Shown: positions 19,553-49,460, counted from the first letter of the stretch. The stretch: DNA of 64,000 bases from Alphaproteobacteria bacterium UBA2903 (GCA_002349565.1 DEDN01000027.1:39669-103668); one strand, 5' to 3'. The notes: a model not told the origin generated them from the sequence alone. A program made the numbers and translations.

Positions 19553-20614
19553 TTACTTCGTCAGCGCGTTTTTGCCGAAATAGTCAATGCCCATTGCGGC
19601 TTTGACTTCGGACAAAGTATCGGCGGCAACCGCGCGCGCCTTTTCACTGCCCGCTTTCAGCATGTCGAACACCGCGCCGATGTCGCCCGCAAAAGCTTCG
19701 CGGCGTTCGCGAATGGGCTTCAGTTCGTTTTGCAGAATTTCGTTTAAGAACTTTTTGACCGTTCCGTCGCCCAAGCCGCCGCGGCGGTAGTGGTCTTTCA
19801 GTTCGTCCAAATTCTTGTACGCGGGCAGGAACGCCGCAAAGTGTTCGTCCGTCGAAAACGCGTCCAAATAGGTAAATACGGGGTTGTTTTCGGTATGTCC
19901 GGGGTCTTCGACGCGCAAATGCGTCGGATCGGTGAACATGCTTTGGACTTTCTGTTTGATTTCTTTGGACGAATCGGACAGGTAAATGCAGTTGCCCAGC
20001 GATTTGCTCATTTTCGCCGCGCCGTCCAGCCCCGGCAAGCGCGAACACAGGCTGTTGTCGGGCAAAACCGCTTCGGGTTCGACCAAAACGGGGCTGTAAA
20101 TCGTGTTGAAAGAACGCACGATTTCGCGCGTCTGTTCAATCATCGGCAGCTGGTCTTCGCCAACGGGGACAAGGTTCGCTTTGAACGCCGTGATGTCGGA
20201 CGCCTGCGAAATCGGATAAGTGAAAAATCCGACAGGAATGCTCTGCTTGAAGCCGCGCATTTGAATTTCGCTTTTCACGGTCGGGTTGCGCTGCACGCGC
20301 GACACGGTGACCAAGTTCATGTAATAGAACGTCAGTTCCGTCAATTCGGGAATTTGAGACTGAATGAAAATCGTCGATTTGGCGGGATCAAGCCCGCACG
20401 CCAAATAGTCCAACGCGACGTTCGATATGTTGTTTCTGACTTTGGTGATGTCGTCGGCGTTGTCGGTCAAAGCCTGCGCATCGGCAATCATAATGAAAAT
20501 CGTGCGGTACAAGCCGCTGTTCTGCATTTCCACGCGGCGTTTCAGCGATCCGACGTAATGCCCCAAGTGCAATTTGCCCGTCGGTCTGTCACCCGTTAAA
20601 ATAATATCACCCAT
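19553..20614 (-). CDS. trpS: Tryptophanyl-tRNA synthetase
   Basis: HIGH-type motif TGKLHLGHY and KMSKS. The start is at MGDIILTG, with an RBS aaaggag 9 nt upstream. Confidence 0.9.
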
Positions 20615-32500: not shown

Positions 32501-34501
32501 TTCCAGCGTCAGATAGCCGACCGCCGCTTTGCTCAGTTCCAATTTCGAAGAATTCAGCAGCCCCAACGTCCCCGTGCCGATGATATTGGCGGGCAAAGTC
32601 CCTTTGACGTCGAAATAAAGCGTCGAACCGCTGTTCAATTTGATTTTTCCGTTGCCCGACAAAGCGTTGACCGTCAGCTTCCCCGCCAACAAATTGAATG
32701 TTTCGTCGGATGAAAACACCAAATTTTTGATAATGCTGCTGCCGTTTGCGTTGTTGGCGTTGCTCTGCCCCGTAAAATTCAAATCAGCCCCAAGGCGCAG
32801 CGTCCCCAAATTGTCGAAAACGCCCGTAAAGCCAATAGCGGATTGGATGAAAACCGTTCCGTTTCCCGTCAGCGTTCCCAGCCACTTCGTTGCGTCATAT
32901 CGGGAAAAGGGTTTGTTCCAAACAACGACATCCGAAACGTTCAGCTGACCGTCAACCTTGTAAGTCGGAAAGATGTCGGCGGTTTGCACGATTTTTGACG
33001 GATTGAACACCGCTCCGGACTTGACGGTGCTTGTTTTCGCCGTATCCGCGTAAAGGTAATCCGCTTTGACCGTTCCGCCCGAAACGACCCAGTTGCCGCC
33101 GCTGACACCGTAAAAAGCCGAATTGTTCAGATCGACGTATCCTTTGACGATGAGCTTTTTGTATTTGTCGGCATCCGCGGCAAGAGTCAGCGCCGTTGAA
33201 TCGCTGTAGTTTCCGATAGTTGCATAAACGTCTGACGTCCCTGTAACCGCCGTCAGATCCAGCGCCGACAAATCCAGCGTTCCGCCGTTTTTATATAACA
33301 GCGTGCTGTGCAAAGACATGGCAAGTTTTGATGCCCCTTTGTGGGTAACATCCCCCAAAACCAAAACGCCGTCTCTTCCGACCGTCAAGGTCGAATTGCT
33401 CAGCGTCAGTTTGTCGATAATCGTTTTTCCTTTCGAATAAACCGTCGCTTTGCTGTTTGTCAGCAACAAATCTTCGATTTTTCCGTTTGTGGCGGCAAAA
33501 TTAACGTGTTCCGACCCCGCCCCGCCGACGGACATTTTCTGCACATAAAAAGTGTGCGTACCGTCTGTATATTCGCTATGCACAGGAGTACCTATCAGAA
33601 CAGAATTATCCGTTGTTGAAATGTTCAATTCTTTCAGCGGATCGGAAAAAGTGTCGGACGCGCTGTCATATTGCCCGACATTGTGAAACTCGGCTAATCC
33701 GCCTGTAGCAACATACGCCGTAATCGTATGATTGCCCGATAAATAAAGTTCCTCAACAGACGACGCACCTGCGAAGTAAATACTCCCTACTGTAATATCG
33801 TTGTTCAGTATCACCCTTCCGGTATACAGAAACTCATTGACAAAATCCCACTTTCCGTTGATGGTTGAAGTTCCGCCATTGGAAAAACGAATCTCGTTTG
33901 CTCGAACATTTTCGGAATTGAAAACAAGCGTTCCGTCGAATTGATATATTCCGTCCCCGTTTAAGGAACCGCTGAAGTTGATATCGTTCGCTCTGAAAAG
34001 GATAATAGAGTCTGTAGTAGCCGAAAAACTTGCATTTTTTCCGACACTAATAGTATTACCGGCAAAAAATTCAAGACTCCTTTCGGAACCGGAACTGTTA
34101 GTAAAATTCCCGGATTCTATTTGTATGTTACGGGCTTCAAATCCAAAATAATACATACTGTGTTCAAGTGTGCCTAAATTTTTGAAAACAAGATCACCGC
34201 TGGCCATATCATTTGGACTTTTCAGCCCGACGGCAAATGAGCCACCGTCCTCTGTTGTAAAATCGTGCGAACTTCCGTTTGTTGTGTCAATAGTCACCGT
34301 TGTCGCATTTTTCAGTAAATCGGACGGAGCTGTTCTGGGAAACTTTCCGCCGTTTTGAATCAGCAAAGCTCCGTTCCCTTGGTCAATAATGCTGATATCT
34401 TCGGCTATTGCCGGACACGCGAACAGCGCCGTTGTCGTCAACAGCGTTTTCAAAAATCCGATTTTTCTTTTCCGTCGCGTCATAGATATTCTGTCTGACA
34501 A
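29492..34501 (-). CDS. Autotransporter, N-terminal fragment (signal peptide plus 1,640-aa passenger, no barrel)
   Basis: Extended signal peptide MSDRISMTRRKRKIGFLKTLLTTTALFACPAIA, then Gly/Thr/Asn-rich passenger repeats. The ORF ends at a TGA 11 codons after a frame break. Confidence 0.8.
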   Translation of the reverse strand: MSDRISMTRRKRKIGFLKTLLTTTALFACPAIAEDISIIDQGNGALLIQNGGKFPRTAPSDLLKNATTVTIDTTNGSSHDFTTEDGGSFAVGLKSPNDMASGDLVFKNLGTLEHSMYYFGFEARNIQIESGNFTNSSGSERSLEFFAGNTISVGKNASFSATTDSIILFRANDINFSGSLNGDGIYQFDGTLVFNSENVRANEIRFSNGGTSTINGKWDFVNEFLYTGRVILNNDITVGSIYFAGASSVEELYLSGNHTITAYVATGGLAEFHNVGQYDSASDTFSDPLKELNISTTDNSVLIGTPVHSEYTDGTHTFYVQKMSVGGAGSEHVNFAATNGKIEDLLLTNSKATVYSKGKTIIDKLTLSNSTLTVGRDGVLVLGDVTHKGASKLAMSLHSTLLYKNGGTLDLSALDLTAVTGTSDVYATIGNYSDSTALTLAADADKYKKLIVKGYVDLNNSAFYGVSGGNWVVSGGTVKADYLYADTAKTSTVKSGAVFNPSKIVQTADIFPTYKVDGQLNVSDVVVWNKPFSRYDATKWLGTLTGNGTVFIQSAIGFTGVFDNLGTLRLGADLNFTGQSNANNANGSSIIKNLVFSSDETFNLLAGKLTVNALSGNGKIKLNSGSTLYFDVKGTLPANIIGTGTLGLLNSSKLELSKAAVGYLTLEGLEIDGKAEAVIKAGISIDKLKFMQDTGGTLGIDSGKTLTVKSGVTMGTGNKIDGAKGALIVQGDSSFSNTVLGTLTAQKATFKGGKSTIGTYTANGDVTVEAGTTLEVNSALDLSKYGLYGEGTLVLNGSGLFSVIGGNKSFGTLTATAKSAADTLNFSGDVYADTIILTGYSSATTKGGAQSFTLNNLTLDGTTVTGPSVNTAFIIKDSLSLKNNAVLKLDGASVRFKTAQTDRLTDGKSKIYFWQENTGNTEVQSEIVFERGGTLYLDDFEWDVSTEHESHSALFTVGNDSAISAALDVKGSSDRAELIVQKNAVLNIAENNATYHTVKVNGGGTANLSSDMTLYWLDLDLRSSGAAIINVKGDVLANTFRSTGGNAFKNAKINIDGKLSFNSAADQSRIPYADFTGKGTLELAADGKGRSGMIGGTFADFGTLALTADGGNVSLTLDLSGGSNTVDKLRFSGTNDAKLTVKGALTVKSSDFKAASNEIVLSSGAELDFDASASNMDNVKISGAGTLGLLNNTSMTFGGSDDLTLKGLKIYRGTATIANDMTIDDVIFMTADAGTLELQNGTLTINNGLSMRAGNTLESSGGNLILKAESTLANAMMNNGTLTTEALTTFTSGKRGSVIQKFIAGGNIAIEAGASLAVLDALNLSGGPYYVYGDGSLTVGAGGMLATGGMLATGSKTLADLTVNGETTFYDNSTIGTLKIKDGVTAKVAADKTLTISKSFSGAINAGEATLRLIDSAQADFKAGDSTKMLRFVMDGANARATFNGNYSLNEMELNQGTIVLADGAVLSLSHGILSGGNITGGGTLNLTAQNTEITKTGDYTLSHLTFGGSGSLTLNGQLTVNNELDYSGHLVDAGEGTLTLGAKGTFGGTFNGTVRVGQTTAEIKANSVFKAFEFTATGGTLTIEKGATLTIAQLNAAGNSVSGGNLKLTGGAVFDTASLNDLTAGADVVVNRSLTVNGALRATSVSGVGELTLTNGGRLPRAARCWEL

Positions 34502-36376: not shown

Positions 36377-38109
36377 TGCAAAAGAATTTACTGAAACGTT
36401 TGCTGTCTTTCACCCGCCCTTACCTGTCCTATCTGGCTTTGGCGCTGTTTTTCGCAGTCGTCAGCGTGTCGATGACGCTGTACGCCCCCGTGCTGACGGG
36501 ACGCGCGATTGATTTGGTCACAGGCAAAGGCGCGGTCGATTTTCAGGCGTTGAAAGCCGTTTTGGAAGTCTTGGCGGTCGTCGTCGCAATAGCCGCCGCG
36601 TCCCAATGGCTGATGGGGCTTTGCACGAACAAAATCACCTATCTGACCGTGCGCGACATCCGCGTCAAAGCGTTCGACCGATTGCAAAAAGTCCCCCTGC
36701 GCTTTATCGATACGACGCCGCACGGCGACATCCTCAGCCGCGTCGCGGTTGATGCGGAACAAGTCGCGGACGGGCTTTTAATGGGCTTTACACAGCTGTT
36801 CACGGGGCTTGTCACGATTTTCGGCACAATCGGCTTTATGGCGGTTATCAACGTCAAAATCACGCTGCTTGTCGTATTTGTTACGCCTTTGTCGCTGTTC
36901 GTCGCGAATTTCATCGCCAAACGCACGTTCAAGTTTTTCAAGGTGCAATCCGAAACGCGCGGGGAAATGACGGCTTTAATCAACGAAACCGTCGGCAACT
37001 TAAAGCTTGTCAAAGCGTTCGGCTATGAAGCGAAATCCCGCGAAAAGTTCGAGGAAATCAATGCCCGTTTGCAGGATTGCGGGGTCAAGGCGCTGTTCTT
37101 TTCATCCATCACCAACCCCTGCACGCGCTTTGTCAACGGCGTGGAGTATACGCTGGTCGGCATTGTCGGGGCGTTAAGCGCGGTTGCGGGCGTGTTGACC
37201 GTCGGGCAGCTGTCGTGCTTTTTAAGCTACGCGAACCAGTACACCAAACCGTTCAACGAAATATCGGGCGTGATTGCCGAACTGCAAAGCGCGCTTGCCT
37301 CGGCAAAGCGGCTGTTTGAGATTATCGACGCGACGCCCGAAACGCCCGACGCGGCGGATGCGAAAGTTTTGGGACACGCGGACGGCACGGTCGATTTGGA
37401 ACACGTTTTCTTTTCTTACGTTCCGGAAATCAAGCTGATCGAGGATTTGTCCCTGAACGTCAAAGCGGGGCAGAAAATCGCCATTGTGGGCAAGACGGGC
37501 TGCGGCAAAACGACGCTGATTAACTTGCTGATGCGGTTTTACGACATCAATTCGGGCAGGATTTCGGTTTCCAAAACAAACGTCGAAAATATGACGCGCG
37601 ACAGCCTGCGCGCGGCGTTCGGCATGGTGCTGCAGGAAACGTGGCTGAAGTCGGGAACGGTGCGGGAAAACATCGCTTACGGCAAACCGCTTGCGTCCGA
37701 TTACGAAGTTGTTTCCGCCGCCGTTGCCGCGCATGCGGACGGCTTTATCAAACGCCTGCCCGACGGTTACGACACCGTTATCGGCGAAGACGGCGGCAGC
37801 CTGTCCCAAGGACAAAAACAGCTGTTGTGCATTGCGCGCGCGATGCTGTCCCTGCCCTCGATGCTGATTTTGGACGAAGCGACCAGCTCGATTGACACGC
37901 GCACGGAAATTTACGTTCAGAAAGCCTTTGACGAAATGATGAAAGGGCGGACAAGCTTTGTCGTCGCGCACAGGCTTTCGACCATTCGCCGCGCCGATTT
38001 GATTTTGGTGATGGACGCGGGGCATATCGTCGAACGCGGCACACACGCCGAATTGTTGGAAAAAGGCGGCTTTTACGCGAATCTGTACAACAGCCAGTTT
38101 GCCGCGTGA
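36376..38109 (+). CDS. ABC exporter, fused permease-ATPase (half-transporter B)
   Basis: Walker A GKTGCGKTT, signature LSQGQKQL and Walker B LILDEATS. Its start overlaps the stop of the upstream gene by 1 nt (taATG), which fits a heterodimer. Confidence 0.9.
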   Translation: MQKNLLKRLLSFTRPYLSYLALALFFAVVSVSMTLYAPVLTGRAIDLVTGKGAVDFQALKAVLEVLAVVVAIAAASQWLMGLCTNKITYLTVRDIRVKAFDRLQKVPLRFIDTTPHGDILSRVAVDAEQVADGLLMGFTQLFTGLVTIFGTIGFMAVINVKITLLVVFVTPLSLFVANFIAKRTFKFFKVQSETRGEMTALINETVGNLKLVKAFGYEAKSREKFEEINARLQDCGVKALFFSSITNPCTRFVNGVEYTLVGIVGALSAVAGVLTVGQLSCFLSYANQYTKPFNEISGVIAELQSALASAKRLFEIIDATPETPDAADAKVLGHADGTVDLEHVFFSYVPEIKLIEDLSLNVKAGQKIAIVGKTGCGKTTLINLLMRFYDINSGRISVSKTNVENMTRDSLRAAFGMVLQETWLKSGTVRENIAYGKPLASDYEVVSAAVAAHADGFIKRLPDGYDTVIGEDGGSLSQGQKQLLCIARAMLSLPSMLILDEATSSIDTRTEIYVQKAFDEMMKGRTSFVVAHRLSTIRRADLILVMDAGHIVERGTHAELLEKGGFYANLYNSQFAA

Positions 38110-38193
38110 AACGTCGCCGCGGCTATTCTGCGTTTTCTTTCGTCATTATTAACGGCACAGAAAGTGCCTACAACAAAACTTCTCATTTTTAAA

Positions 38194-39579
38194 TCAAAAT
38201 CTGAAATAGATGAACGGATTGTATGTTGAAGCAGCCATTGACGCCACAGCCAAAACAAACAGCAAAACCAGTCCCAAATTGACTAACACCAGCCCTGCCT
38301 TGTTGCGTACAAACAAAATATTTTTGCATACGGGCATAGCACACAACGCCGCAATCACAAAAGCGATAATCTCTATATTGTCAATGTAATAAGCCGTCGT
38401 ATAAGAAATATCGCGACCGCGAACAAATCCGAACATATTTTTCAGATATTCAACAGCATACGACAGCGTGTCCGCGCGAAAAACAACCCACCCGATAACA
38501 ACGACGAAAATCGCGTAAGCATGGTGCAAAAACGATTTTGTTTCATTTTTATGCCAACCCGTCAATTTTTCGACAATAATGAACAAACCGTGCCATAATC
38601 CCCAAACAACAAAAGTCCAACTGGCACCATGCCACACGCCTGTCGCCAGAAAAACAATGAACAAGTTAAGCAAATTACGTTTTTTGCCAACCCGATTTCC
38701 GCCTAAAGGAATGTACAGATATTCCTTAAACCACGTTGACAAAGAAATATGCCATCTGTGCCAAAATTCCGTAATGGATTTTGAAATATAGGGATAGTTG
38801 AAATTTTCCAAAAATTTGAATCCGAAAATCGCTCCCAATCCGATAGCCATATCGGAATACCCGGAAAAATCATAAAACAGTTGAAACGAATAAGCTATTG
38901 CCCCGATCCAAGCCGTCAAAGCATTAAATTGTTCAACCGGTTGAGAAAAAATTTTATCGGCAACCGCGCCCAGAGTGTTCGCTATCAGTATTTTTTTCGC
39001 CAGTCCGATGATAAAGCGTTTTATACCGTACACCGCTTTTTCGCTAGACTCTTCCCGATTTGAAATTTGATCGGCGACATCATGATATTTGACAATCGGT
39101 CCCGCAACCAGTTGAGGAAATAATGTAATGTACAAAGCCAATTTTGCCAAATCCCTCTGCGCCTGTGCTTCACGGCGATACACGTCAATCAGATAAGACA
39201 TTGCTTGAAAAGTATAAAAAGAAATGCCGATAGGCATAACAACGTCAATCAGCGAAATATCCGCTGAACACAGCGCATTAATATTTTCAACAACGAAATT
39301 GAAATATTTAAAATAAAACAAAAAACTTAAATCCGCGCAAATCGTGCATGACAAAATCGACCTTGCTTTTTTGCGGTATTTTTCAATACATAGTGCGCCC
39401 GCCCAATTGATAATGATCGTCGCAATCATTATCGCCAGATAATCGGGTTCGCCCCATGCGTAAAATACAATACTCGCAACAAGCAATACATGATTCTTCA
39501 GCTCGCGGCGCGACAAAAAATACAATGTTGCAACGATCGGCAAAAACAAAAACACAAACGTCATCGATGAAAAAAGCAT
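38194..39579 (-). CDS. MBOAT-family membrane O-acyltransferase (AlgI/DltB-like)
   Basis: A multi-TM protein with the motif FWHRWHISLSTWFKEYLYIPLGGNR. The gene is low in GC. Confidence 0.85.
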   Translation of the reverse strand: MLFSSMTFVFLFLPIVATLYFLSRRELKNHVLLVASIVFYAWGEPDYLAIMIATIIINWAGALCIEKYRKKARSILSCTICADLSFLFYFKYFNFVVENINALCSADISLIDVVMPIGISFYTFQAMSYLIDVYRREAQAQRDLAKLALYITLFPQLVAGPIVKYHDVADQISNREESSEKAVYGIKRFIIGLAKKILIANTLGAVADKIFSQPVEQFNALTAWIGAIAYSFQLFYDFSGYSDMAIGLGAIFGFKFLENFNYPYISKSITEFWHRWHISLSTWFKEYLYIPLGGNRVGKKRNLLNLFIVFLATGVWHGASWTFVVWGLWHGLFIIVEKLTGWHKNETKSFLHHAYAIFVVVIGWVVFRADTLSYAVEYLKNMFGFVRGRDISYTTAYYIDNIEIIAFVIAALCAMPVCKNILFVRNKAGLVLVNLGLVLLFVLAVASMAASTYNPFIYFRF

Positions 39580-39583
39580 GGCA

Positions 39584-41251
39584 TTATTTCCTCATAAAAT
39601 CTGGGACTTTTTGATTTTCAAGATATGGGAGATACCGTTCAACTATTTCAAAAACGATAATATCCGATTGCTTTAAAATTTGTTCATCACTAAGTTTAAA
39701 TTCTCTTCGCCATTCAAAAACACTTTCTCTAAAACACATATAATAATAATCAAGCATAGATTTTGAAAACGAGTCCCTAAGAGAAAACAAATTTATTTTA
39801 TTGTCCTTGTTAACACAGTGAACACTATCTCTGCTTTTTGTATCAACGCAATTGTCGCTTTGTACCGTCAAATGTTTATACTTAATATTTTCATACAAGC
39901 CTTTCCTTGTATAAATCATTGAATTTAAATCTCCTTTCGGATACGAAACGAGTTTGAACTCAACATTTAATGACGGCAATTCTGGAAAATCTTTTTTCAT
40001 TTCATCCCACAAAGCCTGATATCCGATAAACGCTCCGTACTGATTCCAATGAGTATCATTCTTCCAATACAATAATCCGTCTTTTTTCGCCGATAAAAGA
40101 TTGTCCCTCGGATAAATGACGTTAATGTCTGAATTTGATTTTATATAATCTACTAATTGATATGTTCTGCTTAACCTATCATCGTTCAATTTTTTATAAG
40201 CAGTCGAAAAGTATTCTCCATATATTTTATTTTTGTCAGGAGCAATAAATAAATAGAATTTCTTTCTGTTTTTTTTGCAGAAAGAATTAATTTCATCAAG
40301 ATACATTAATATTGAATTAAGCTGCTTTTTATTATATAAAATCTTATTTTGCCAATTTTGAATCCCATTATCAAGTTTCAAAAAAATAAAGCCATCTTTT
40401 CCCATCATAGCTTTGTTATTTTCTATACGACTGTTAATGAAATTTTTAAAAACAGACCATAATGACTGCAGTCTTTTTCTGCCGTTAAATCTGTCATTAA
40501 ACCACGCCTCAAAATCGCGCCCGTATTTCAAATTCATCCCGTTTTTCGTTATCAAAGACGGACGCTTGGCTAACATTCTGTTTTCCGTAACGGATTTGTC
40601 GGCGCGATCGATTTTCGACATTGGAACAAACAGCACGGCACACACAACAATAAGCAACGCAACATCAGCCGCAGGAATGCGCGTTTTGATTTTTAAAATC
40701 ATTCCCGCCAACTGCCACCCCGCCAAACAAGACAGCGCAAAAACGCTGAACAGCAGCAATCCGTCAATTTCAATTCCGTGCTTTAATTTCAACGGTCTTT
40801 TCCAAATAAAATACGGATCCTTTTGCGATGAATTTAATTCCAGTATATCGTTTTCAATCTTGTACGAATCGATTTGATTTGGATGAACGTCTGTTTTTCC
40901 TTGCAGCAAATAAACGGTTTTATCGCCTTTTATTTTCAAATTCTTAATCGTTATATTCCCGGGAACGGTTCCAACATCCAGTCTGAATCTTTCGATATAT
41001 TTCACGGGCAACAGCAGCTTGACCTTTCTATAATCAGAATTCAAAACCGCTTTTTGAGTTACGACCTTATTTCCGTTGAATTTCTCGCCATCCGTTTCCG
41101 TATAAAATACTTGAAACGCAATGGAAGAATCGCCCGTTCCTTTGGCAAGAAATTCCACCTCGATCGTCGAAGTCTTGTATAGCCGCGCGCACAACAAACA
41201 ACATACCGTTGCAAAAAAACAGGCTAAACCTAAACGGGATTTGTTAAGCAT
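39584..41251 (-). CDS. AlgX/AlgJ/DltD-like periplasmic O-acyltransferase partner (DHHW family)
   Basis: A signal anchor followed by the KNDTHWNQYGA (D-x-H-W) motif. The gene lies immediately upstream of the MBOAT gene and is low in GC. Confidence 0.6.
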   Translation of the reverse strand: MLNKSRLGLACFFATVCCLLCARLYKTSTIEVEFLAKGTGDSSIAFQVFYTETDGEKFNGNKVVTQKAVLNSDYRKVKLLLPVKYIERFRLDVGTVPGNITIKNLKIKGDKTVYLLQGKTDVHPNQIDSYKIENDILELNSSQKDPYFIWKRPLKLKHGIEIDGLLLFSVFALSCLAGWQLAGMILKIKTRIPAADVALLIVVCAVLFVPMSKIDRADKSVTENRMLAKRPSLITKNGMNLKYGRDFEAWFNDRFNGRKRLQSLWSVFKNFINSRIENNKAMMGKDGFIFLKLDNGIQNWQNKILYNKKQLNSILMYLDEINSFCKKNRKKFYLFIAPDKNKIYGEYFSTAYKKLNDDRLSRTYQLVDYIKSNSDINVIYPRDNLLSAKKDGLLYWKNDTHWNQYGAFIGYQALWDEMKKDFPELPSLNVEFKLVSYPKGDLNSMIYTRKGLYENIKYKHLTVQSDNCVDTKSRDSVHCVNKDNKINLFSLRDSFSKSMLDYYYMCFRESVFEWRREFKLSDEQILKQSDIIVFEIVERYLPYLENQKVPDFMRK

Positions 41252-41260
41252 ATTTTCTCC

Positions 41261-42121
41261 TTATTTTTCATGCAATTTTGCGGTGCGCTTAAAGCTCAAC
41301 AACAGCAGCTTGCCGAATAAATACACTTTCGTTTTGTATCCTTGCGTTTCGATTTTCAGCAAAGGAATAAAGCCGAACAGTTTCACCCTGACCGCGCAAG
41401 CCGCGCGCAGTATAAATTCATCGTACAATGCGGGATGTTCGACTTTCAGCAACGCCTGCACGGCAAACGTCGCCCGCGCCATTCGATCCGCCTGCAGCAG
41501 CGACGTGTTGCTTTCATGACAGCGGTAACGGAACAGCACTTCGGGCAAATTGTGAAATTTTGTGACTTTCATCAGGCGCGCGAACAGAGCATAGTCTTCC
41601 GACGGGGAAAACTCTTCCTCGTAGCGAAGTGCATTGCCGGTCAAGACCGATTTGCGAATCATGCAGGCGGAATGAACGATCGGACAGCCGCGCATCATGG
41701 CAAGCTTGATTTCCTTGTCGTTTTCAGGAAAGTTTGACAGATCTCCGTGCGGAAATCTTTGAATCCTGCACGACACAAGCCCCACATCGGGATGCGCGTC
41801 CAGAAAAGCCGCTTCCCGTTCGAACCGTTCGGGCAAAGACACGTCGTCATGATCCATAACCGCCAAGTATTCGCCGTTTGCCAAATCAATCAGCCTGTTG
41901 CGCGTCCCCGATATACCTATGTTGGCTTCGTTTCGATAAAAGCGAATGCGCGGATCGGCGTAGGATTTGACAACGGATTCAATATCCCCGCCCGTTGAAC
42001 CGTCGTCCACAATGATAAATTCGAAGTCTTCAAGCGTTTGATTCAGCACGCTTTCGATTGCTTCGCGCAGATATTCCTCTTTGGTGTTGAAAGTCGGAAA
42101 CAAAACGGAAATTTTAGGCAT
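41261..42121 (-). CDS. Family-2 glycosyltransferase
   Basis: ISVLFPTFNTKEEYLREAIESVLNQT...FIIVDDGSTGG. Confidence 0.85.
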   Translation of the reverse strand: MPKISVLFPTFNTKEEYLREAIESVLNQTLEDFEFIIVDDGSTGGDIESVVKSYADPRIRFYRNEANIGISGTRNRLIDLANGEYLAVMDHDDVSLPERFEREAAFLDAHPDVGLVSCRIQRFPHGDLSNFPENDKEIKLAMMRGCPIVHSACMIRKSVLTGNALRYEEEFSPSEDYALFARLMKVTKFHNLPEVLFRYRCHESNTSLLQADRMARATFAVQALLKVEHPALYDEFILRAACAVRVKLFGFIPLLKIETQGYKTKVYLFGKLLLLSFKRTAKLHEK

Positions 42122-42698
42122 CGATCAGCTCCGCCAATTCGGGCGTCCTTTTAAGGAAAGTCGCCAGCGTGTTTTGCGCGACATGCAATCGTATGGCGAT
42201 TTGACGGCGCGAATAGCCGCTTTGCAGCAATTGAGCAATTTCGATTTCATGCCCCGACAATTTTGTTCGCTTGTTCAGCGCGCCGTAAGGACGCCCCAGC
42301 TTTTGCCCCGCGGAACGGCGAAGATCCAAGCTTTCCTTGGTCAATCGGGATCGCAGTTCCTCCGTCAAAGCCGCAACTTTTTCGAACATATCCGCCATAA
42401 CCGCCGCAGAGGCAAGATTTCCGTCAAACAGCACGCCGTCGGCGCAAGAATAAACCGTAACACCCCTTTTCAGCAGCACCGCCAGCATTTTGGCAATGGA
42501 AGCGACATCTTTTGCCAGACGGAACGTTTTTTCCAACAGCAAAACATCGCCCCGCCCCAAAGATTCGGGATTGAACGCGGAAGCATTCTGCCAATTGTCG
42601 ATTGGCATCCCGCGCAATTCGGCATAGTTTGAAATTGCCGATTGCTGACGCTTGGCAACTTCATCGCCGTTCTGATCTTGTATAAAAGCGACGTTCAT
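42114..42698 (-). CDS. Serine-recombinase (resolvase/invertase) homolog lacking the catalytic Ser motif
   Basis: The C-terminal two-thirds align with the resolvase at 48549 (RGDVLLLEKTFRLAKDV... / GKLGRP / HTH). The N-terminus reads FIQDQNGDE where a resolvase has Y-x-R-x-S-T-x-x-Q. The gene overlaps the downstream GT2 start by 8 nt. Confidence 0.65.
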   Translation of the reverse strand: MNVAFIQDQNGDEVAKRQQSAISNYAELRGMPIDNWQNASAFNPESLGRGDVLLLEKTFRLAKDVASIAKMLAVLLKRGVTVYSCADGVLFDGNLASAAVMADMFEKVAALTEELRSRLTKESLDLRRSAGQKLGRPYGALNKRTKLSGHEIEIAQLLQSGYSRRQIAIRLHVAQNTLATFLKRTPELAELIDA

Positions 42699-42712
42699 GC
42701 CGCCTCCCGCTT

Positions 42713-45700
42713 TTACAAAAAGTTGATAAAGGAACGGCTTTCGCTCAATAGCAAAACTTGAGTTTTAATGCCCGTACGCTTGTCTTCCACGAATCTAATT
42801 CCCTTTTCGGACAGCCTTTGCTTTGTTTTGCGAATAGTGTCCTGTTCGCCCGCCCGTTCGGCATCGTCGAATATAATGACGAAATCGTCGGCAAGGTTGT
42901 TGTCAACCAGACCGATAATGTTCGTCCTCGGCTGCGGCTGATCGGCGCCGAAAGGTCCGTCAACAACAATCAGCTGATATTTCGTGTCTTGGACAATCGG
43001 CGTCATATCGGCATATTTGCGGCAAGCAATCCCGTTTACCGTAAAAAATTCCAGTTCTTGATGATGAATGCGGATATTGTCCCCTTTTGCCAATTGTGCG
43101 GAATAAAGGTCAATCCAGTTTTTGTCGTTTTCGACAATATCCAGCTTTGCATCGGGATGTTTAAAAGCCGCATATTGAGTCGTCAGTTTGGACGTTTGCC
43201 CCATTCCCATTTCCAAAATTGTTTGAGGATTGGCGTTGTCCAAAACTCTGAACAGCGTGTACAGGAAACCATAATTCGCCGCCCCGCGGAAACAGGTAAA
43301 CGATTTGTCTTTCAGCCAAGCGGTTTGCAAAGTGGTGTCGTGAAGCAAATCGGCAAAATTCAATTCTTGATAATTTTGCCGCGCTTCAGTCTGCGCCTTT
43401 TGTATTTTTTGCTTTAAATCCTGCGCGTTTTCTTCTTGCTTCACAGAAACGTCTTTTGACAACACCGCCAGTTCAGATTTCAGATCAGCCGTTTGCTCTT
43501 TCAAAGTTTCGCTGACATTTGCGTTGATTTCATCGGTTTGACGAGTCAATTCTCCCGTCAAGCGGAACAATCCGTCCTTGGCGTTCAAACCACACTCTTT
43601 AACGGCAAGATTTACCTTTTCGCTTGCCGCTTCCGTCGCCGCCGTCAACAGTTTGAAATCGGACAACAATCTTTCCGATATGCGTTCAATCGCCTTTGCA
43701 TTGGCAAACAAACTGTTTTGCAAAGTCTGGCAATAAGACGTCATTTGATTTTCCAATGCCGTCGCCGCCTCTTCGGACTGCCGCGTGCTGTACATCAGTT
43801 CGTTTGACAGCATGGATGACATGCGGCTTACTTGATCTGTAATTTCCTTAACGGCATTGCGTTCTGTTTCATGGATTGCGGAAACGATCAAATTTGACGC
43901 CTCCGACAACGCTTTTTGCAAACCCGTTTGTTTTTCCGCCAAACTTTTGATTTCGTTGTTCAGATTACCCAGTTCCTTTTTCACGATGTCCTGACGTGAC
44001 AGTGCATCAACGATCTGTTTGCTTAATGCTTGGTGCAATTTCGCAAACAATTCGCCGTTTTCAACGCGATTTTGAGTAATTTCGGCAGACAAAGCGGCAA
44101 AGCGGTTTTCCCGTGTGATTTTCAGTCCCAAAACACGGTAAATCTTCTTGTTCTCCTGTTTGGTAACAGAGAACAAGGGATTAGTTTTTTTTGCTTCCTT
44201 TTTCTGATTTGGCATTTTTTTCACCAACGTTTTGACAATGGAGTTCATATGTCCCAAAACATAATTCGATGAAGGAAACAGTTTTTTAAGTGTATCCGTC
44301 AAATCTGCCGGCGCATAATTGTGTAGCGATTGTTCAAAAGCAATTTGCACCACTTGTCCGTCTTTAACAGGCATTTCATATTTGAAAGGCTTGTCGTGCC
44401 AGACTGTTACAGGGATTTTCAACTGTTCATTGCCGTTGATTTTGATGGATGTGAAATCAATATAAACAGGAAAACGCACATTACTTTTATCACGTTTGTC
44501 TTGCCCTCGGAAAACAATTGACAATTTACCGTCTTTAATTGCCTTTACCGTCATTTTTTGTACCAACGAACTGCCTGTAACAACTTTCCCACGTCCTTGC
44601 GCATTGGAAAGCCACGCAGGCTCGGCAACAGATAAAGTATTTCCTGTTATAGAAATACCATTTTCAGACTTACCAACGTTTTTAACATCCAATCTGAATG
44701 TGTGCAGAGTATCTTCAACACATTTTTCCATTTTACGGCTTAATTTGCGTTTTAATTTTTCCCGTTGTAACAAATTGTACGGGAATAAAATGTATGACAA
44801 CAGCTTTTTTGTACGCTTAATGGTTTCTATATTGTTATAAATTATCTTAATAGTATTATCTATATCGTAATCATTTCTAACATCTCGCAAAAATGTTCCC
44901 CAACGTTTATTGAAAATCTTTTTATTCTTTTCTAATGCTATTTTTCTTCTTGTACTTCCAAATGATGCGTGGCGTTTATGATATACTAATAAATTATCTA
45001 TTAGGACAGTTTTATACCCATTCTTAATAGCCCTTAAATCAAAATCATCTTCTTCACAATACCCACACTCAAAAACTTCATCAAACAAACCTATAGTTTT
45101 AGCGATGTTTTTTCTTACACAAAAACAAAACCCTTCTGGCGTAAACAAAGGATATTTTGGGGAAATTTTTTTATTAATTAAGGCATCTGTTTTTTTAAAA
45201 TCATAAAACAGCGTTTCTTTAATATTAAAAAATCCAGAATTTGTACAAAGCGGAGATGCCGCTGCTATTTTTCTATCACAACTAAAACAAGCAGCAACCC
45301 TATTATCAAACAACGCAGGAATCTTTGTATCGCTATTCAAAAACACAACAACATCATTATTAGCAATTTCAAGAGCCTTATTGCAAGTTTTCAAAAAGCC
45401 AAGGTTTTTCTCATTTCTTATATATTTAAAATTATATTTTTTACAATACTTTTTTACAAAATTTCCTTCTTTTATAGAGGAAGCATCATCAATCACAATA
45501 ACCTCCGTTGACTTTTTTAATTTTGCCTGTCTTAACGATTTCAAGCACATTTTAACATCTTTCACCGCATTATAAACAGGGACAACTACAGATATGCTTT
45601 CTCTATCACTTTCATTTGACCATTTTTTTTCTTCATGTGTCACCATTGTATTTAAATTTTTAGAAAAACACTCCATTGAATTAAATTTAATATAGTGTTT

Positions 45701-47413
45701 TCTGCATTGTTCTTCAAAACTTTTAACTTTATAATCATTAATAATTTTATTCATACATCTAGCCAAATCATCTACATCTTCTGACTTAAATAAATATCCG
45801 TTTTCTCCTTCCGTCAAAGCATATTGAGCACCAACATGATCAGACATAATGACTGGACGTCCCATCATAAATGCTTCTAACGCCACTCTTGATGTTGGTT
45901 CTTCACGAGAGGGAACTACTACACAAGAAATTTTTTCATAAAAATTTCTCATCTCTGTTTTGTCCTTTATTTCAGGAACAAAAATTACACGATCAGACAT
46001 ATTTTTAATTTTTTCATAAAACTTTCCATCAACAACATTACCTACAATATAGCATTCAATTTCTTCTTTTATTTTGTCTAATGCATTTATAAATACATCT
46101 TGTCCTTTTCTGTTTCCTATCGTCCCAATTACAGCGAATCTAATAACACCTTTATTTGCTTTAATTCCCCTATATGAATCTGGAATTCCATGATGAAAAA
46201 CGCTAATATCACTATTATAATATCTGTACTCATTTGAAGAATATTCAGACATCACATATATTGATTTTTGATTTTTCAAAATTCGTTTTAAATCTTGATT
46301 ATCATCAGCAAAATTACTACCTTCTCTGATCCACCATATTGTCGGCATTAGAGATGAAATTTGCTCAACTTCATAATACGGAATTATTGTATTAACAATC
46401 ACAACATCCGAACAAAGCATCCCTCTTAACAAACTCCACATATTCCGATCTATCAATTGAACCTTCATTCCCTTTTCTTCAAACTCTTTTGAAAGAGGTC
46501 CTTCTTTCAATGTCATAATTCGAACTTTGTACCCCATTTTCTGTAAACATTCCGCTGACTGTAATAACGAAATAGGAGCTCCGGTATAAGTCATTTCATG
46601 AGAAATACATAGTATTCTTTTAAAAGAATTATTTTTCTTTTTAAAAAATTTAATTATTTTCTTTTGCATAGAAGAAAATTTGTTATAATCAATCTTCCTT
46701 CCTTCTTTTTTTCCATGCCTAATATAATGCAACAATGGGCATACGCCAGCTTTCTTAACGTCCCCGTACATATTCAAATACGCCGCATTGTTAAATTTTT
46801 TGCTTGGGTTTCTATTGTTTTTCCATCCGTACATTAAATAATGCTCAATCGGATCAATATTACATTCTTTAATTTCAGCATTATTTTTTTTGTAAAATTT
46901 ACAATCGAACAGACTTGAATTTTTTAATTCTAAATACCCATCAATATGTTTGTTATTTTTATCTACATTATGTTTCACCATAACATTTAAAGTAGATTTC
47001 GGATATGTCACAATATTTCTTATTGCTGTTTTTACACTTAAAAATGGGGCAAGACGTTTTTCCTGCAAATGGATATCCGCATATCTATCCTCAAACTGTC
47101 CATGCAGAAGCCAATGCGCTAGCGGATTCATATTCGCTTTGGCGACATCGGGATACATCTGCAGATAGGCTTTGCCGTCAAAGTACGGGGTTGTCGGGCG
47201 GTCTTCTTTCCACCCGATTGTCAAGTAATGCTCCACGGGGTCGGCTTTGGCGGCGGCGACATCGGGATTGTGTTCCAAATACCATTTGGCGTCAAACAGC
47301 GGCGATTTTGCAATCGCGCGATATTCCGGCGCGTATTTTTTCATCCGTTTTTTATATGCTTTTTTGTTAATCAGATGAAAAAAGCGTAAAGTTTTCAAAA
47401 ATCCCCGTGTCAT
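42713..47413 (-). CDS. 1,566-aa multidomain polysaccharide-biosynthesis protein: 4 x N-terminal ~40-aa repeats, GT4, GT2, ~500-aa coiled coil, C-terminal SAM-MTase-like domain
   Basis: The repeats read F(D/N)xxxYLxxxPDVAxAxxNPLxHYLxxGxxE(G/D)RxP. The GT2 domain is VVVPVYNAVKDVKMCLKSL..VIVIDDAS. The C-terminal motif I is TILEMGMGQTS. The start is at MTRGFL, an ATGA overlap with the upstream RgpF-like gene. Confidence 0.75.
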   Translation of the reverse strand: MTRGFLKTLRFFHLINKKAYKKRMKKYAPEYRAIAKSPLFDAKWYLEHNPDVAAAKADPVEHYLTIGWKEDRPTTPYFDGKAYLQMYPDVAKANMNPLAHWLLHGQFEDRYADIHLQEKRLAPFLSVKTAIRNIVTYPKSTLNVMVKHNVDKNNKHIDGYLELKNSSLFDCKFYKKNNAEIKECNIDPIEHYLMYGWKNNRNPSKKFNNAAYLNMYGDVKKAGVCPLLHYIRHGKKEGRKIDYNKFSSMQKKIIKFFKKKNNSFKRILCISHEMTYTGAPISLLQSAECLQKMGYKVRIMTLKEGPLSKEFEEKGMKVQLIDRNMWSLLRGMLCSDVVIVNTIIPYYEVEQISSLMPTIWWIREGSNFADDNQDLKRILKNQKSIYVMSEYSSNEYRYYNSDISVFHHGIPDSYRGIKANKGVIRFAVIGTIGNRKGQDVFINALDKIKEEIECYIVGNVVDGKFYEKIKNMSDRVIFVPEIKDKTEMRNFYEKISCVVVPSREEPTSRVALEAFMMGRPVIMSDHVGAQYALTEGENGYLFKSEDVDDLARCMNKIINDYKVKSFEEQCRKHYIKFNSMECFSKNLNTMVTHEEKKWSNESDRESISVVVPVYNAVKDVKMCLKSLRQAKLKKSTEVIVIDDASSIKEGNFVKKYCKKYNFKYIRNEKNLGFLKTCNKALEIANNDVVVFLNSDTKIPALFDNRVAACFSCDRKIAAASPLCTNSGFFNIKETLFYDFKKTDALINKKISPKYPLFTPEGFCFCVRKNIAKTIGLFDEVFECGYCEEDDFDLRAIKNGYKTVLIDNLLVYHKRHASFGSTRRKIALEKNKKIFNKRWGTFLRDVRNDYDIDNTIKIIYNNIETIKRTKKLLSYILFPYNLLQREKLKRKLSRKMEKCVEDTLHTFRLDVKNVGKSENGISITGNTLSVAEPAWLSNAQGRGKVVTGSSLVQKMTVKAIKDGKLSIVFRGQDKRDKSNVRFPVYIDFTSIKINGNEQLKIPVTVWHDKPFKYEMPVKDGQVVQIAFEQSLHNYAPADLTDTLKKLFPSSNYVLGHMNSIVKTLVKKMPNQKKEAKKTNPLFSVTKQENKKIYRVLGLKITRENRFAALSAEITQNRVENGELFAKLHQALSKQIVDALSRQDIVKKELGNLNNEIKSLAEKQTGLQKALSEASNLIVSAIHETERNAVKEITDQVSRMSSMLSNELMYSTRQSEEAATALENQMTSYCQTLQNSLFANAKAIERISERLLSDFKLLTAATEAASEKVNLAVKECGLNAKDGLFRLTGELTRQTDEINANVSETLKEQTADLKSELAVLSKDVSVKQEENAQDLKQKIQKAQTEARQNYQELNFADLLHDTTLQTAWLKDKSFTCFRGAANYGFLYTLFRVLDNANPQTILEMGMGQTSKLTTQYAAFKHPDAKLDIVENDKNWIDLYSAQLAKGDNIRIHHQELEFFTVNGIACRKYADMTPIVQDTKYQLIVVDGPFGADQPQPRTNIIGLVDNNLADDFVIIFDDAERAGEQDTIRKTKQRLSEKGIRFVEDKRTGIKTQVLLLSESRSFINFL

Positions 47414-48285
47414 TTTATAACCCTTCTGTGATAAACGGGTATGCGGCAGATTTTGACCAGCCGATACCCGCGCGCCGTTGTTTTCGTGTTCCAAACAAAA
47501 TGTTTCAGCCGTTTCAGCGGTTGAGCCGTTTCAAATTTCCAATTATGACTGGAGCCTTTGATTTTATAGCCTTGGGCGACGACCATGCACCCGAACACCC
47601 GTTCCAGCACATGCGCCAAAGTGCCGTCTTTAACGGCAGAATCGGACAAAGCAAAATCCTGCAGAGAATAAGCGTTTTTAATCGGCTCCAGCAGCTTTGC
47701 CCTGACCGCGAACATCGTTCCCGCCGCGAAAGTGATTTTCGGCGGATATCGCCCCGTCAAATTTTTCATCGCCGACAAAACGCCGCGGCAAACGTTTTTT
47801 GACGCTCCAAAATCCGATGTAATCAAATAACGGGACGCGATCATCCCGCAATCCGCATCTTTGTCAAACAAATGCAAGTTGCGCAAAACGGTCCGCCTGT
47901 CCGAAATCAAAGACTGATACATCAGACCGGTCCACATTTCGCGGGACAGCCAATATTTGTTGATTTGACTGTCACAGCCGCTCTTATCGTTTTTGGTATG
48001 CAGTTTCAGCACAAAATCGTAATCGGACAAATCGATTTGATGCAGAAAATAGATAAACGGTCCGACGTCAAAGCCGCGGTTTTCCACGACGAAAATTTTC
48101 GCCTGCGGGAAAAATTCCAAAATCCGTTTGCTTAACAGCGCATCCGATTGCGTCAGCGTTACAAACAAATCCCAATCGCATACATCCAAATTTGACAGAC
48201 TGTCGGCTATTTTCGCCCACATATCCGTGTAATACAAATGCAGGTGAACCGCGACTTTTGCCCTGTTTTCCTTGTCAGCAACCAC
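47410..48285 (-). CDS. Rhamnan-synthesis protein F (RgpF)-like
   Basis: A 291-aa protein starting VAVHLHLYYTDMWAKIADSLSNL..DLFVTLT, typical of the Rhamnan_synth_F family. Confidence 0.65.
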   Translation of the reverse strand: MVADKENRAKVAVHLHLYYTDMWAKIADSLSNLDVCDWDLFVTLTQSDALLSKRILEFFPQAKIFVVENRGFDVGPFIYFLHQIDLSDYDFVLKLHTKNDKSGCDSQINKYWLSREMWTGLMYQSLISDRRTVLRNLHLFDKDADCGMIASRYLITSDFGASKNVCRGVLSAMKNLTGRYPPKITFAAGTMFAVRAKLLEPIKNAYSLQDFALSDSAVKDGTLAHVLERVFGCMVVAQGYKIKGSSHNWKFETAQPLKRLKHFVWNTKTTARGYRLVKICRIPVYHRRVIK

Positions 48286-48548
48286 TACGAATTACCATCT
48301 TTAACGTCCATCCAACGGGGAATTGATATCAGAAACGGACGTTTGTGATACGTTTCGCCGTCCGTTTCCCGCAAAAACAAAAAAAGTCGAAACTCCTTGT
48401 TTTAAAAGAATATTCATAATTTCGTGATTTATAGGACGCGGCACAATTTATAGCAAAAAATGTCTTGATTTAAACGTCCCTTTATTTGCATACGTTCGCA
48501 CCCCAATTCTGATAAACAACCCGAAAACAAACCAAGGAGATTCAGCCA

Positions 48549-49157
48549 ATGATTTATGGATACTGCAGATGTTCAACAGACAAGCAAACCGTCGACAATC
48601 AGGAATTTGAAATCAAAAGCTTTGCCGAACAAAACGGACTGACCGTCGAAATATGGGTTACCGAAACCGTTTCCAGCAGAAAACCGCTTGAACAGCGTCA
48701 ACTCAACAAAGTATTGAAAAAACTGAAAGAAGGCGACACTTTAATTGTAACCGAAATATCCCGCCTTGGGCGCAGTTTGATGGAAATCATGAGCATTTTG
48801 CAAAAGTGTCTGGACCGCAACTGCATGGTTTGCGCCATCAAGGAAAACTACCGCTTGGGCAACAATCTGGAAAGCAAAGTGCTGGCGTTCGCGTTCGGCA
48901 TTTCCGCCGAAATCGAAAGAAAACTGATTTCCGACAGAACAAAAATGTCGCTTAACAAATTGAAAAGCGACGGCGTAAAACTGGGGCGACCTTTGGGGGC
49001 GAAAAGCAGAAATCTCAAATTGTCGAAAAACAAGCTTAAAATCTTTGAATTGCTGGACAAAGGCGTTCCCAAAGCCCAAATCGCCCGAATGCTGGGCGTC
49101 GATAAAATGACCCTGCACCGTTTTATCAAACTGACGACATCCGACAATCAAAATTGA
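48549..49157 (+). CDS. Serine recombinase (resolvase/invertase family), apparently intact
   Basis: MIYGYCRCSTDKQ carries the catalytic Ser. A GRPLG hinge and a C-terminal HTH follow. Confidence 0.85.
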   Translation: MIYGYCRCSTDKQTVDNQEFEIKSFAEQNGLTVEIWVTETVSSRKPLEQRQLNKVLKKLKEGDTLIVTEISRLGRSLMEIMSILQKCLDRNCMVCAIKENYRLGNNLESKVLAFAFGISAEIERKLISDRTKMSLNKLKSDGVKLGRPLGAKSRNLKLSKNKLKIFELLDKGVPKAQIARMLGVDKMTLHRFIKLTTSDNQN

Positions 49158-49167
49158 GGGAGGGAGT

Positions 49168-49370
49168 ATTCACCGAACTCCATTACCCAACTAAAAAAGC
49201 CACCCTTTGGGGTGAAATCACATTATGGCGGGAGCGGGATTTATTCGGGGCTGTCGCCCCTCACCCCTGCGGGGCCGCCGTTCCGGCGTTGCCTGCGCTT
49301 CGCTTCGGCTGAACCTGAGAGGTTCATTCACCGAACTCATTACCCAACTAAAAAAGCCACCCTTTGGGGT
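49168..49370. repeat. 46-47-bp direct repeats flanking a ~110-bp head-element copy that contains a degenerate tRNA-fMet 3'-end copy
   Basis: attcaccgaactc(c)attacccaactaaaaaagccaccctttggggtg occurs at 49168-49214 and 49325-49370. The intervening ggcgggagcgggattt...cccctcacccctgcgggg resembles both the tRNA-fMet 3' end (gtgcgggagtgggattt) and the element at 600-678. Confidence 0.6.
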
Positions 49371-49380
49371 GGCTTTTTTA
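49349..49380. terminator. Bidirectional terminator between the recombinase gene and tRNA-fMet
   Basis: aaaaaa-gccaccc-tttg-gggtggc-tttttt. Confidence 0.65.
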
Positions 49381-49382
49381 GT

Positions 49383-49460
<78 letters not shown>

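Follow-up and report, generated by a model that had tools for sequence, protein, structure and literature searches.

A stretch of 64,000 nucleotides from the genome of Alphaproteobacteria bacterium UBA2903 (GCA_002349565.1, DEDN01000027.1:39669-103668), referred to here as the window, contains a glycan biosynthesis operon whose third, tightly coupled gene (positions 42114 to 42698) encodes a small protein related to serine recombinases. This protein is very probably a catalytically dead descendant of an Mpi-type DNA invertase, maintained by selection as a standard component of the phase-variation cassettes of uncultured gut and rumen members of the Alphaproteobacteria. In these cassettes, an invertase gene is followed by a short invertible promoter segment flanked by sites of the AAACG-NN-C(G/C)TTT type, then by the gene for the dead paralog, and then by a variable glycan operon. 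The presence of a dead invertase copy behind the flip-flop promoters of surface-sugar operons suggests a previously undescribed layer of control on phase variation.

Loss of the active site in the window paralog

The paralog consists of an N-terminal domain followed by an E-helix, an LGRP hinge, a helix-turn-helix (HTH) domain, and an extra C-terminal helix (the PEL tail); the ATG start of its gene is preceded by GGGAGG. In BLASTP, it shares 32% identity over 180 amino acids (E value of 9e-22) with the product of a divergent gene at the head of the same operon, and the match spans the core, the beta3 "RLG" region, the E-helix, the LGRP hinge, and the HTH. The Pfam Resolvase domain (PF00239) matches the paralog at model positions 62 to 144 only (E value of 6e-9), which is the C-terminal two-thirds of that domain, and residues 143 to 184 are matched by HTH_38, GerE, and HTH_7. 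The GR(P) hinge and the C-terminal HTH of the small serine recombinases are present; their nucleophile motif, Y-x-R-V-S-T-x-x-Q, is absent.

In multiple alignments, the sequence AFIQDQNGDE of the paralog is placed opposite GYCRCSTDKQ of the neighboring protein, and the same N terminus aligns with YARVSTSQQ of gamma-delta resolvase and YIRVSTIDQ of Hin. In gamma-delta numbering, R8 and the nucleophile S10 are both replaced by Q, RLGR has become RLAK (R71 to K), a loop of approximately 10 amino acids that bears R45 is deleted, and the Arg of the ERT motif in the E-helix is Leu. R68 is the sole catalytic Arg that is kept.

These alignments bear out the preliminary description of the gene, made from the window sequence, as a degenerate serine-recombinase paralog that has lost its Ser nucleophile, and also show the loss of catalytic Arg residues. 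Its placement in the glycan operon is likewise borne out, as the gene lies 14 nucleotides (nt) from the stop of a giant glycosyltransferase (GT) gene at 42713 and overlaps by 8 nt (ATGCCTAA) the GT2 gene that starts at 42121. An alternative start that might restore the catalytic motif was looked for; the upstream frame has two stops and no ATG, GTG, or TTG, so there is no such start. One correction concerns the neighboring protein, which had been taken for a bona fide resolvase. It scores 274.6 bits against NCBIfam NF009949 (master DNA invertase Mpi family; cutoff of 272) and is by this measure an Mpi-family DNA invertase rather than the resolvase of a transposon. The best NCBIfam match of the paralog is to the same model, at 84.8 bits, far under the cutoff. 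Judging from its sequence, the paralog clearly descends from the serine recombinases and the Mpi family; with neither the catalytic features of the former nor the score of the latter, it is not a functional member of either.

Conservation and selection in the paralog family

A homologue search that covered 5.8 billion proteins retrieved 48 clusters of 187 to 202 amino acids and 39 to 97% identity, all with an N terminus of the M-I-Y-A-F-V-Q-D type. The same catalytic substitutions are found in all 48, which identifies them as a family trait rather than an artefact of sequencing or annotation. Across 16 diverse members, 44 positions are invariant, including those in DxLLLEKTFRLxKD, SCxD, RSxLTKE, and LGRPxG, and the window paralog carries the complete set of family motifs (M-I-Y-A-F-V-Q-D, D-V-L-L-L-E-K-T-F-R-L-(G/A)-K-D, S-C-x-D, R-S-x-L-T-K-E, and L-G-R-P). 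The L-G-R-P hinge is invariant in the family, and the E-helix and R68 are retained. Proteins of this family, of about 190 to 200 amino acids and encoded downstream of a switch, are represented by no Pfam or NCBIfam model.

The column of the nucleophile is variable (Q, Y, G, or S). A few members have a Ser at or next to it (P0034, with QDS, and P0046, with QSS), and P0055, which belongs to a sister type, retains YxRVS and RLGR. Such cases might indicate that the paralog is still a recombinase that relies on a non-canonical nucleophile or active site. This is extremely unlikely, however, given the variable nucleophile column and, in the window family, the invariant Q in place of R8, the K in place of R71, and the deletion of the R45 loop.

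Pairwise ratios of nonsynonymous to synonymous substitution rates (dN/dS) range from 0.09 to 0.39 for the paralogs and from 0.03 to 0.09 for the partner invertases, apart from one near-identical pair at 0.27. The paralog is under purifying selection and is not decaying. An AlphaFold2 model of it (mean predicted local distance difference test score, pLDDT, of 83.8) shows a resolvase-like alpha/beta core, a 35-residue E-helix, a disordered hinge, a three-helix HTH, and the extra C-terminal helix. The best PDB matches of this model in Foldseek are Tn3 resolvase on site III, gamma-delta resolvase, and Sin (5cy1, 1gdt, and 2r0q; E values from 1e-6 to 8e-8). The gene might still be regarded as a non-functional relic, kept open by chance or by translational coupling, on the grounds that all catalytic residues are gone, as this argument words it, and that the paralog evolves 3 to 5 times faster than the invertase. 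Against such a relic stand the full-length open reading frames (ORFs) in 48 clusters and at least nine cassette contexts, dN/dS values well under 1, the 44 invariant positions, the confident fold prediction, and the retention of the gene after the operon was rearranged in the window clade. A relic is thus very unlikely, and a pseudogene was ruled out on dN/dS, conservation, and predicted fold.

A profile search over 1.84 billion representatives returned only 18 below 1e-30. The top matches of the paralog family are other degenerate types, marked by the sequences GVQTYAN, YLQTAN, VRLCKN, VRLTRN, and YIRAERDG, together with one that retains VRVS; ordinary MIYGYIRVSTDKQ invertases rank below them. 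In a neighbor-joining tree, which carries no bootstrap support, the main degenerate types group together in a single clade, and the catalytic Mpi-like clade is its sister. All of the genome matches are metagenome-assembled genomes (MAGs) of uncultured gut or rumen Alphaproteobacteria, including UBA6411, UBA3864, HGM16788, UMGS1296, RGIG6957, and RUG12246.

The HTH is the most variable domain of the paralogs, with a mean identity of 0.39. In the window, the recognition helix of the paralog (AQNTLATFLK) differs from that of the cognate invertase (DKMTLHRFIK) at the positions that are likely to contact bases. Whole HTH modules are swapped from one type of paralog to another; the repeats and the helices of the invertases, in contrast, do not change. 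Contig L021 encodes a second degenerate paralog at 10570-11172 (MRLMYYGYIRAERDG; the Arg is kept and the Ser is replaced by Glu), which overlaps the end of the first. Its HTH module, VDINTLRRYLKLHP, is also found on other N-terminal types (P0201, P0203, and P0204), pointing to domain shuffling among paralogs. Among the matches in the representative library, natural proteins of 575 to 839 amino acids (P0053, P0056, P0060, and P0061) contain two complete catalytic Mpi-like modules in tandem, each with YxRVS(T/S)DxQ.

Switch-like element at the head of the window operon

The 263-bp gap between the invertase gene and the rgpF-like gene, which starts at 48285, holds two inverted crossover-like sites. 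The operon-proximal site 1 is the sole palindrome of its type in the window, and the only two exact matches to AAACGTCCSTTT in the window both fall in this gap, in inverted orientation. The central dinucleotides of the two sites are inverted as well, GA in site 1 and TC in site 2. The core of site 2, AAACGTCCCTTT, is identical to the boundary of the inversion demonstrated for contigs L006 and L008 (see below), and the invertase gene starts 59 bp beyond this site. Two inverted sites around a short segment next to an invertase gene are, as far as the sequence goes, the crossover-site layout of a serine invertase. Searches of the window with the core motif and the half-sites found no invertase sites beyond these two; six half-site matches with one mismatch are isolated and non-palindromic.

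The segment between the sites contains a putative promoter (TTGCTA-17-TATAAA) that reads into the glycan operon. Both of its hexamers are conserved in UBA6411 (L018, a relative with 79% identity) despite a diverged spacer, and in that genome both inner half-sites carry the same C-to-T change. A GAATATT(C/T) box is found 11 to 13 nt downstream of the putative -10 hexamer in every cassette type (48408-48415 in the window) and adjoins the right repeat in L004, L006, L021 to L028, and L031. The box lies outside the invertible segment in the main clade and inside it in the window clade, so it tracks the promoter and leader rather than the crossover site.

Switch cassettes and inversions in other genomes

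Exact-protein look-ups and a genome scan yielded nine cassette types. In each of them the paralog gene follows a switch-like element, and it is usually the first gene to do so. An intact invertase is encoded within 0.3 kb (6 kb in the window clade) in seven of the nine. In the common form, the gene for an intact invertase (MTVYGYLRVSTDKQ; 198 to 201 amino acids) ends approximately 210 bp upstream of the paralog gene on the same strand, and a glycan or sugar operon comes next. The window cassette is rearranged, with the invertase gene divergent at the operon head and the paralog gene in third place. Homology between cassettes ends with the paralog gene, and different biosynthetic genes follow, as in L021 versus L022; L004 and L020 share only a 406-bp piece (95% identical) that corresponds to the 3' two-thirds of the paralog gene. 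This boundary indicates that the paralog is part of the regulatory cassette and not of the biosynthetic gene set.

Public contigs contain four independent inversion polymorphisms of the approximately 100-bp gap segment, located exactly at repeats of the AAACG(A/T)CC(C/G)TTT type. The L006 and L008 segments (120 nt) are 100% identical as reverse complements; the other groups are L021, L023, L025, and L027 versus L022 and L004; L001 and L002 versus L003; and L031 and L032 versus L033. Inversions of such precision in four sister cassettes show that these switches are real and active in nature. The view of the paralog as the descendant of an invertase tied to invertible-promoter phase variation, and not as the product of a mobile element, is supported. 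The earlier suggestion of an invertible-promoter switch stands insofar as two inverted sites flank a putative-promoter segment in the window; this switch is not visibly a "remnant," because the invertase is intact and constrained (dN/dS of 0.09 against UBA6411) and sister loci flip. Nor is the paralog an isolated case of domestication, as it recurs in switch cassettes of this type and is under selection there.

The clades of P0005 and P0204 flip or carry switches without an adjacent invertase. In L001, a truncated invertase pseudogene is found at the far end of the cassette (20103-20423, minus strand), there is no intact adjacent invertase, and both orientations of the switch are seen, so the flipping enzyme must be encoded elsewhere. 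Single MAGs may contain two invertase-switch-paralog cassettes, as do RGIG6957 (L022 and L027) and the MAG shared by L023 and L028, and the two cassettes of one MAG front related or different glycan operons. One assembled cassette copy of RGIG6957 is in the ON orientation and the other in the OFF orientation. Some contigs (L024, at position 1, and L019 and L027) begin exactly at the right switch repeat or adjacent to it, as would be expected if mixed orientations break assemblies there.

Possible functions of the paralog

Our preferred reading, which is tentative, is that the paralog modulates the invertase or its switch without catalysis. The parts that would serve dimerization and the seating on DNA are kept, namely, the core fold, the amphipathic E-helix, the invariant LGRP minor-groove hinge, and the HTH, and the paralog may bind DNA, as the label "DNA-binding regulator" in the preliminary description implies. 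In this reading, an inert invertase copy expressed from the switch would join the active enzyme, or compete with it, at the crossover sites and so confer memory or directionality on the flip-flop (for example, an ON-lock), possibly with locus specificity. In the window, the paralog would still be transcribed from the putative switch promoter and would be made mainly in the ON state, feeding the state of the switch back onto recombination. It might do so by occupying the switch DNA or through assembly with the active invertase into mixed dimers or tetramers that are unable to complete double-strand cleavage. The outcome would be a biased rate of inversion, most simply a stabilization of the ON state of its own locus. 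Flipping would turn the putative promoter of the window clade towards the invertase gene, and the two orientations might alternately favor the enzyme and its dead paralog. In Tn3 and gamma-delta resolvases, catalytically inert subunits act architecturally at res sites II and III, and TnpR acts as a repressor.

All eight window-clade contigs (the window, L009, L011/L038, L030, L036, L037, L039, and L018) have the same orientation of the switch. This uniform ON orientation would fit an ON-stabilizing role. Several observations, this one among them, weigh against the proposed modulation or against an active switch in the window. An exact pattern for the flipped junction had no matches in metagenome contigs, and a flank pattern and exact-protein look-ups added 7 contigs with the same orientation as the window. 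A sigma-70 consensus scan of positions 48150 to 48650 called neither a promoter nor a terminator, so the promoter assignment rests on the conserved hexamers and was made by eye. The recognition helix, which differs from that of the invertase, varies between clades, and is shuffled, argues against simple competition for identical half-sites. In the main clade, the invertase gene precedes the paralog gene in the same direction, and transcription that reads through from it could supply the paralog even when the switch is OFF. Flipping of the window switch is plausible.

The variable HTH, unlike that of the invertase and swapped as a module, is what would be expected for locus-specific operators, and it brings up a different role. 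The paralog could be a dimeric HTH transcription factor, independent of recombination and encoded at the start of each phase-variable glycan operon. It would activate or repress the operon that encodes it, or cross-repress the remaining glycan loci so that one glycan dominates, by a logic like that of UpxY/UpxZ of Bacteroides, FljA of Salmonella, or TnpR as a repressor. The place of the paralog gene directly behind the invertible promoter resembles that of UpxY/UpxZ, and there are MAGs with at least two cassettes, one of which has one copy ON and the other OFF. Weak matches to GerE/LuxR-type HTH domains and distant matches to response-regulator-like folds point the same way. However, no candidate operator covaries with the recognition helix, and the palindromes that follow the right repeat differ between loci with the same helix. 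The invariant GRP hinge and the E-helix are site-binding features of the recombinase type, and an ordinary transcription factor would not require the strict linkage to invertase and switch over nine cassettes. Taken alone, this role is somewhat doubtful; the evidence fits it almost as well as it fits modulation of the switch, and it is nearly as likely.

The best fold match of the paralog, a resolvase dimer on an accessory site, would also suit a required accessory subunit or directionality factor that replaces Fis and its enhancer, or the subunits at res II/III, in a productive synapse. Such a subunit would promote inversion and, being expressed in the ON state, would act mainly from ON to OFF, in the manner of the orientational control by FimE. 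It shares its anatomical evidence with the proposed modulation of the switch, and the high conservation of the N-domain and E-helix motifs (DVLLLEKTFRLGKD and RSxLTKE) suggests a conserved protein partner. On the other hand, no third conserved recombinase-type site is found in or near the segments, the half-site search having returned site 1 only, and the switches of the P0005 and P0204 clades without an adjacent invertase indicate that any stoichiometric pairing is loose. Eight window-clade contigs out of eight in the ON orientation do not fit an accelerator of ON-to-OFF switching that is expressed in the ON state. An accessory role is improbable.

Comparison with known systems

The switch and the invertase are of a known kind, that of the invertible polysaccharide promoters of the Mpi type, found here in another phylum and with a separate invertase for each locus. 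As in Bacteroides fragilis, a small serine invertase (in the window, one that reaches the NCBIfam Mpi cutoff) is combined with short inverted repeats that have an ACGT-containing core and surround a segment of roughly 100 to 190 bp with a promoter (putative in the window), in front of surface-polysaccharide operons of gut bacteria. The L031 repeat, AAACGTTCGT, would match ARACGTWCGT, a core ascribed to the Mpi repeats of B. fragilis. The differences are that the hosts are members of the Alphaproteobacteria and not of the Bacteroidota, that most loci have their own invertase copy in place of one master enzyme, and that the cassette includes a dead invertase paralog, which is not described for Bacteroides.

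Additional regulators of Mpi-mediated inversion are suspected, and UpxY and UpxZ have a role in the phase-variable capsule operons of Bacteroides (PMC10403206). Like the paralog, these regulators are encoded right behind the invertible promoter, are conserved ahead of variable biosynthetic genes, and are made from the ON locus only. However, there is no homology between them: UpxY is NusG-like, UpxZ is its inhibitor, and both act on transcription elongation, whereas the paralog combines a recombinase fold with an HTH.

The alpha/beta core, long E-helix, GR(P) hinge, and C-terminal HTH are shared with the invertases Hin, Gin, Cin, and Pin and with the gamma-delta, Tn3, and Sin resolvases. The resolvases offer a further parallel, in that their dimers at res II/III act without catalysis and TnpR also represses transcription. 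Unlike all these enzymes, the paralog lacks the Ser nucleophile, two of the three catalytic Arg residues, and the R45 loop, and carries an additional conserved helix at the C terminus; a dedicated paralog takes the non-catalytic part here, in place of one protein in two roles. In the Escherichia coli fim switch and the Salmonella hin/H2 system, the levels of the regulators FimE and FljA follow the orientation of the element; the active tyrosine recombinase FimE feeds back on the switch, and FljA, which is unrelated to recombinases, on the alternative antigen. The switch-dependent product here is instead an inactive copy of the serine invertase itself. The literature searched contains no description of an inactive or degenerate invertase paralog wired to a switch or of invertible promoters in the Alphaproteobacteria.

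In gut Bacteroides, Mpi-type invertible promoters are the textbook mechanism for the phase variation of surface glycans. The present cassettes come from a different gut phylum, with a dead invertase copy hard-wired behind each switch. If the paralog modulates inversion, it would provide simple feedback for a stochastic switch and would be a natural dominant-negative recombinase, useful in synthetic recombinase memory circuits, and its role in memory or directionality would be one that Fis with its enhancer, recombination directionality factors, and UpxZ fill elsewhere by unrelated means. If it is a transcription factor instead, it would clearly exemplify the domestication of a site-specific recombinase as a regulator. 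Either way, there is active glycan phase variation in uncultured gut Alphaproteobacteria, and the protein motifs now allow the annotation of genes labelled only as "recombinase family protein."

Other features of the window and of related cassettes

The operon is tightly packed throughout and runs from the rgpF-like gene through the genes for the giant GT, the paralog, the GT2 enzyme, and the AlgX-like protein to the MBOAT gene (Table 1). According to the L009 gene call, the giant GT gene overlaps the rgpF-like gene by 4 nt. The final approximately 760 residues of its product have no Pfam match. The region from 38100 to 47400 is a GC mosaic on a background of about 55% GC, with about 30% in the GT4/GT2 part of the giant gene and in the AlgX-like gene and about 50 to 53% in the paralog and GT2 genes.

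Table 1. Features of the operon, the switch-like element, and the conserved ~95-nt element (window positions unless a contig is named)
Feature	Position	Strand	Description
MBOAT acyltransferase	38194..39579	-	Last operon gene
AlgX-like SGNH protein	39584..41251	-	O-acetylation
GT2 glycosyltransferase	41261..42121	-	
Dead Mpi-like invertase paralog	42114..42698	-	Very probably catalytically dead; 194 aa; resolvase-fold N-domain without R8, S10, and R71
Giant GT4+GT2 glycosyltransferase	42713..47413	-	1566 aa by L009 gene call; longest ORF reaches 47494
RgpF-like (rhamnan synthesis protein F)	47410..48285	-	First operon gene
Crossover-type site 1	48326..48351		Operon-proximal; 26-bp palindrome ATATCAGAAACG-GA-CGTTTGTGATAC
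Candidate invertible segment	48345..48471		127 bp between 12-bp repeat arms; one orientation seen
Putative promoter	48428..48456	-	TTGCTA-17-TATAAA; reads into glycan operon; assigned by eye
Crossover-type site 2	48465..48490		Invertase-proximal; TTGATTTAAACG-TC-CCTTTATTTGCA
Mpi-family serine DNA invertase	48549..49157	+	Intact; 202 aa; MIYGYCRCSTDKQ; divergent from operon
~95-nt element	L001 10592-10687		
~95-nt element	L004 11656-11747		
~95-nt element	L020 10592-10683		
~95-nt element	L021 14273-14363		
~95-nt element	L022 12373-12465		
~95-nt element	L024 659-749		
~95-nt element	L025 15150-15243		
~95-nt element	L026 9711-9805		
~95-nt element	L027 863-954		
~95-nt element	L028 6823-6915		
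~95-nt element	L031 10901-10995		
~95-nt element	L034 8644-8738		

The window invertase, and not the paralog, weakly matches TIGR04323, the "LIC12192 family sporadic carbohydrate cluster protein" (24.9 bits; cutoff of 55), which hints at an association of further resolvase-N-like proteins with carbohydrate clusters. The invertase gene is immediately followed (49177-49460) by a tRNA gene (49386-49460, minus strand) and two copies of a hairpin-forming repeat (ACCCAACTAAAAAAGCCACCC...); Rfam matches in the window are three tRNAs only. A 1228-amino-acid autotransporter preceded by an overlapping 1669-amino-acid ORF with no Pfam match is found at 25821-34501 (minus strand); an autotransporter gene also adjoins the cassette of L001.

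Other cassettes, but not the window, contain a conserved structured element of about 95 nt, in the sense orientation and placed right after the paralog gene or after the first few operon genes. It has an invariant 8-bp outer stem (GAACGGGA/UCCCGUUC), two inner stems with compensatory changes at 9 of 21 pairs, and conserved unpaired AUGUCCA and AAAA. It had no match in Rfam (E value of ≤1), and a covariance model of it detected 13 copies, including two that were not in the seed. The element is a candidate for a new cis-acting RNA of these glycan operons and may act in an antitermination-like way, comparable to the EAR element.

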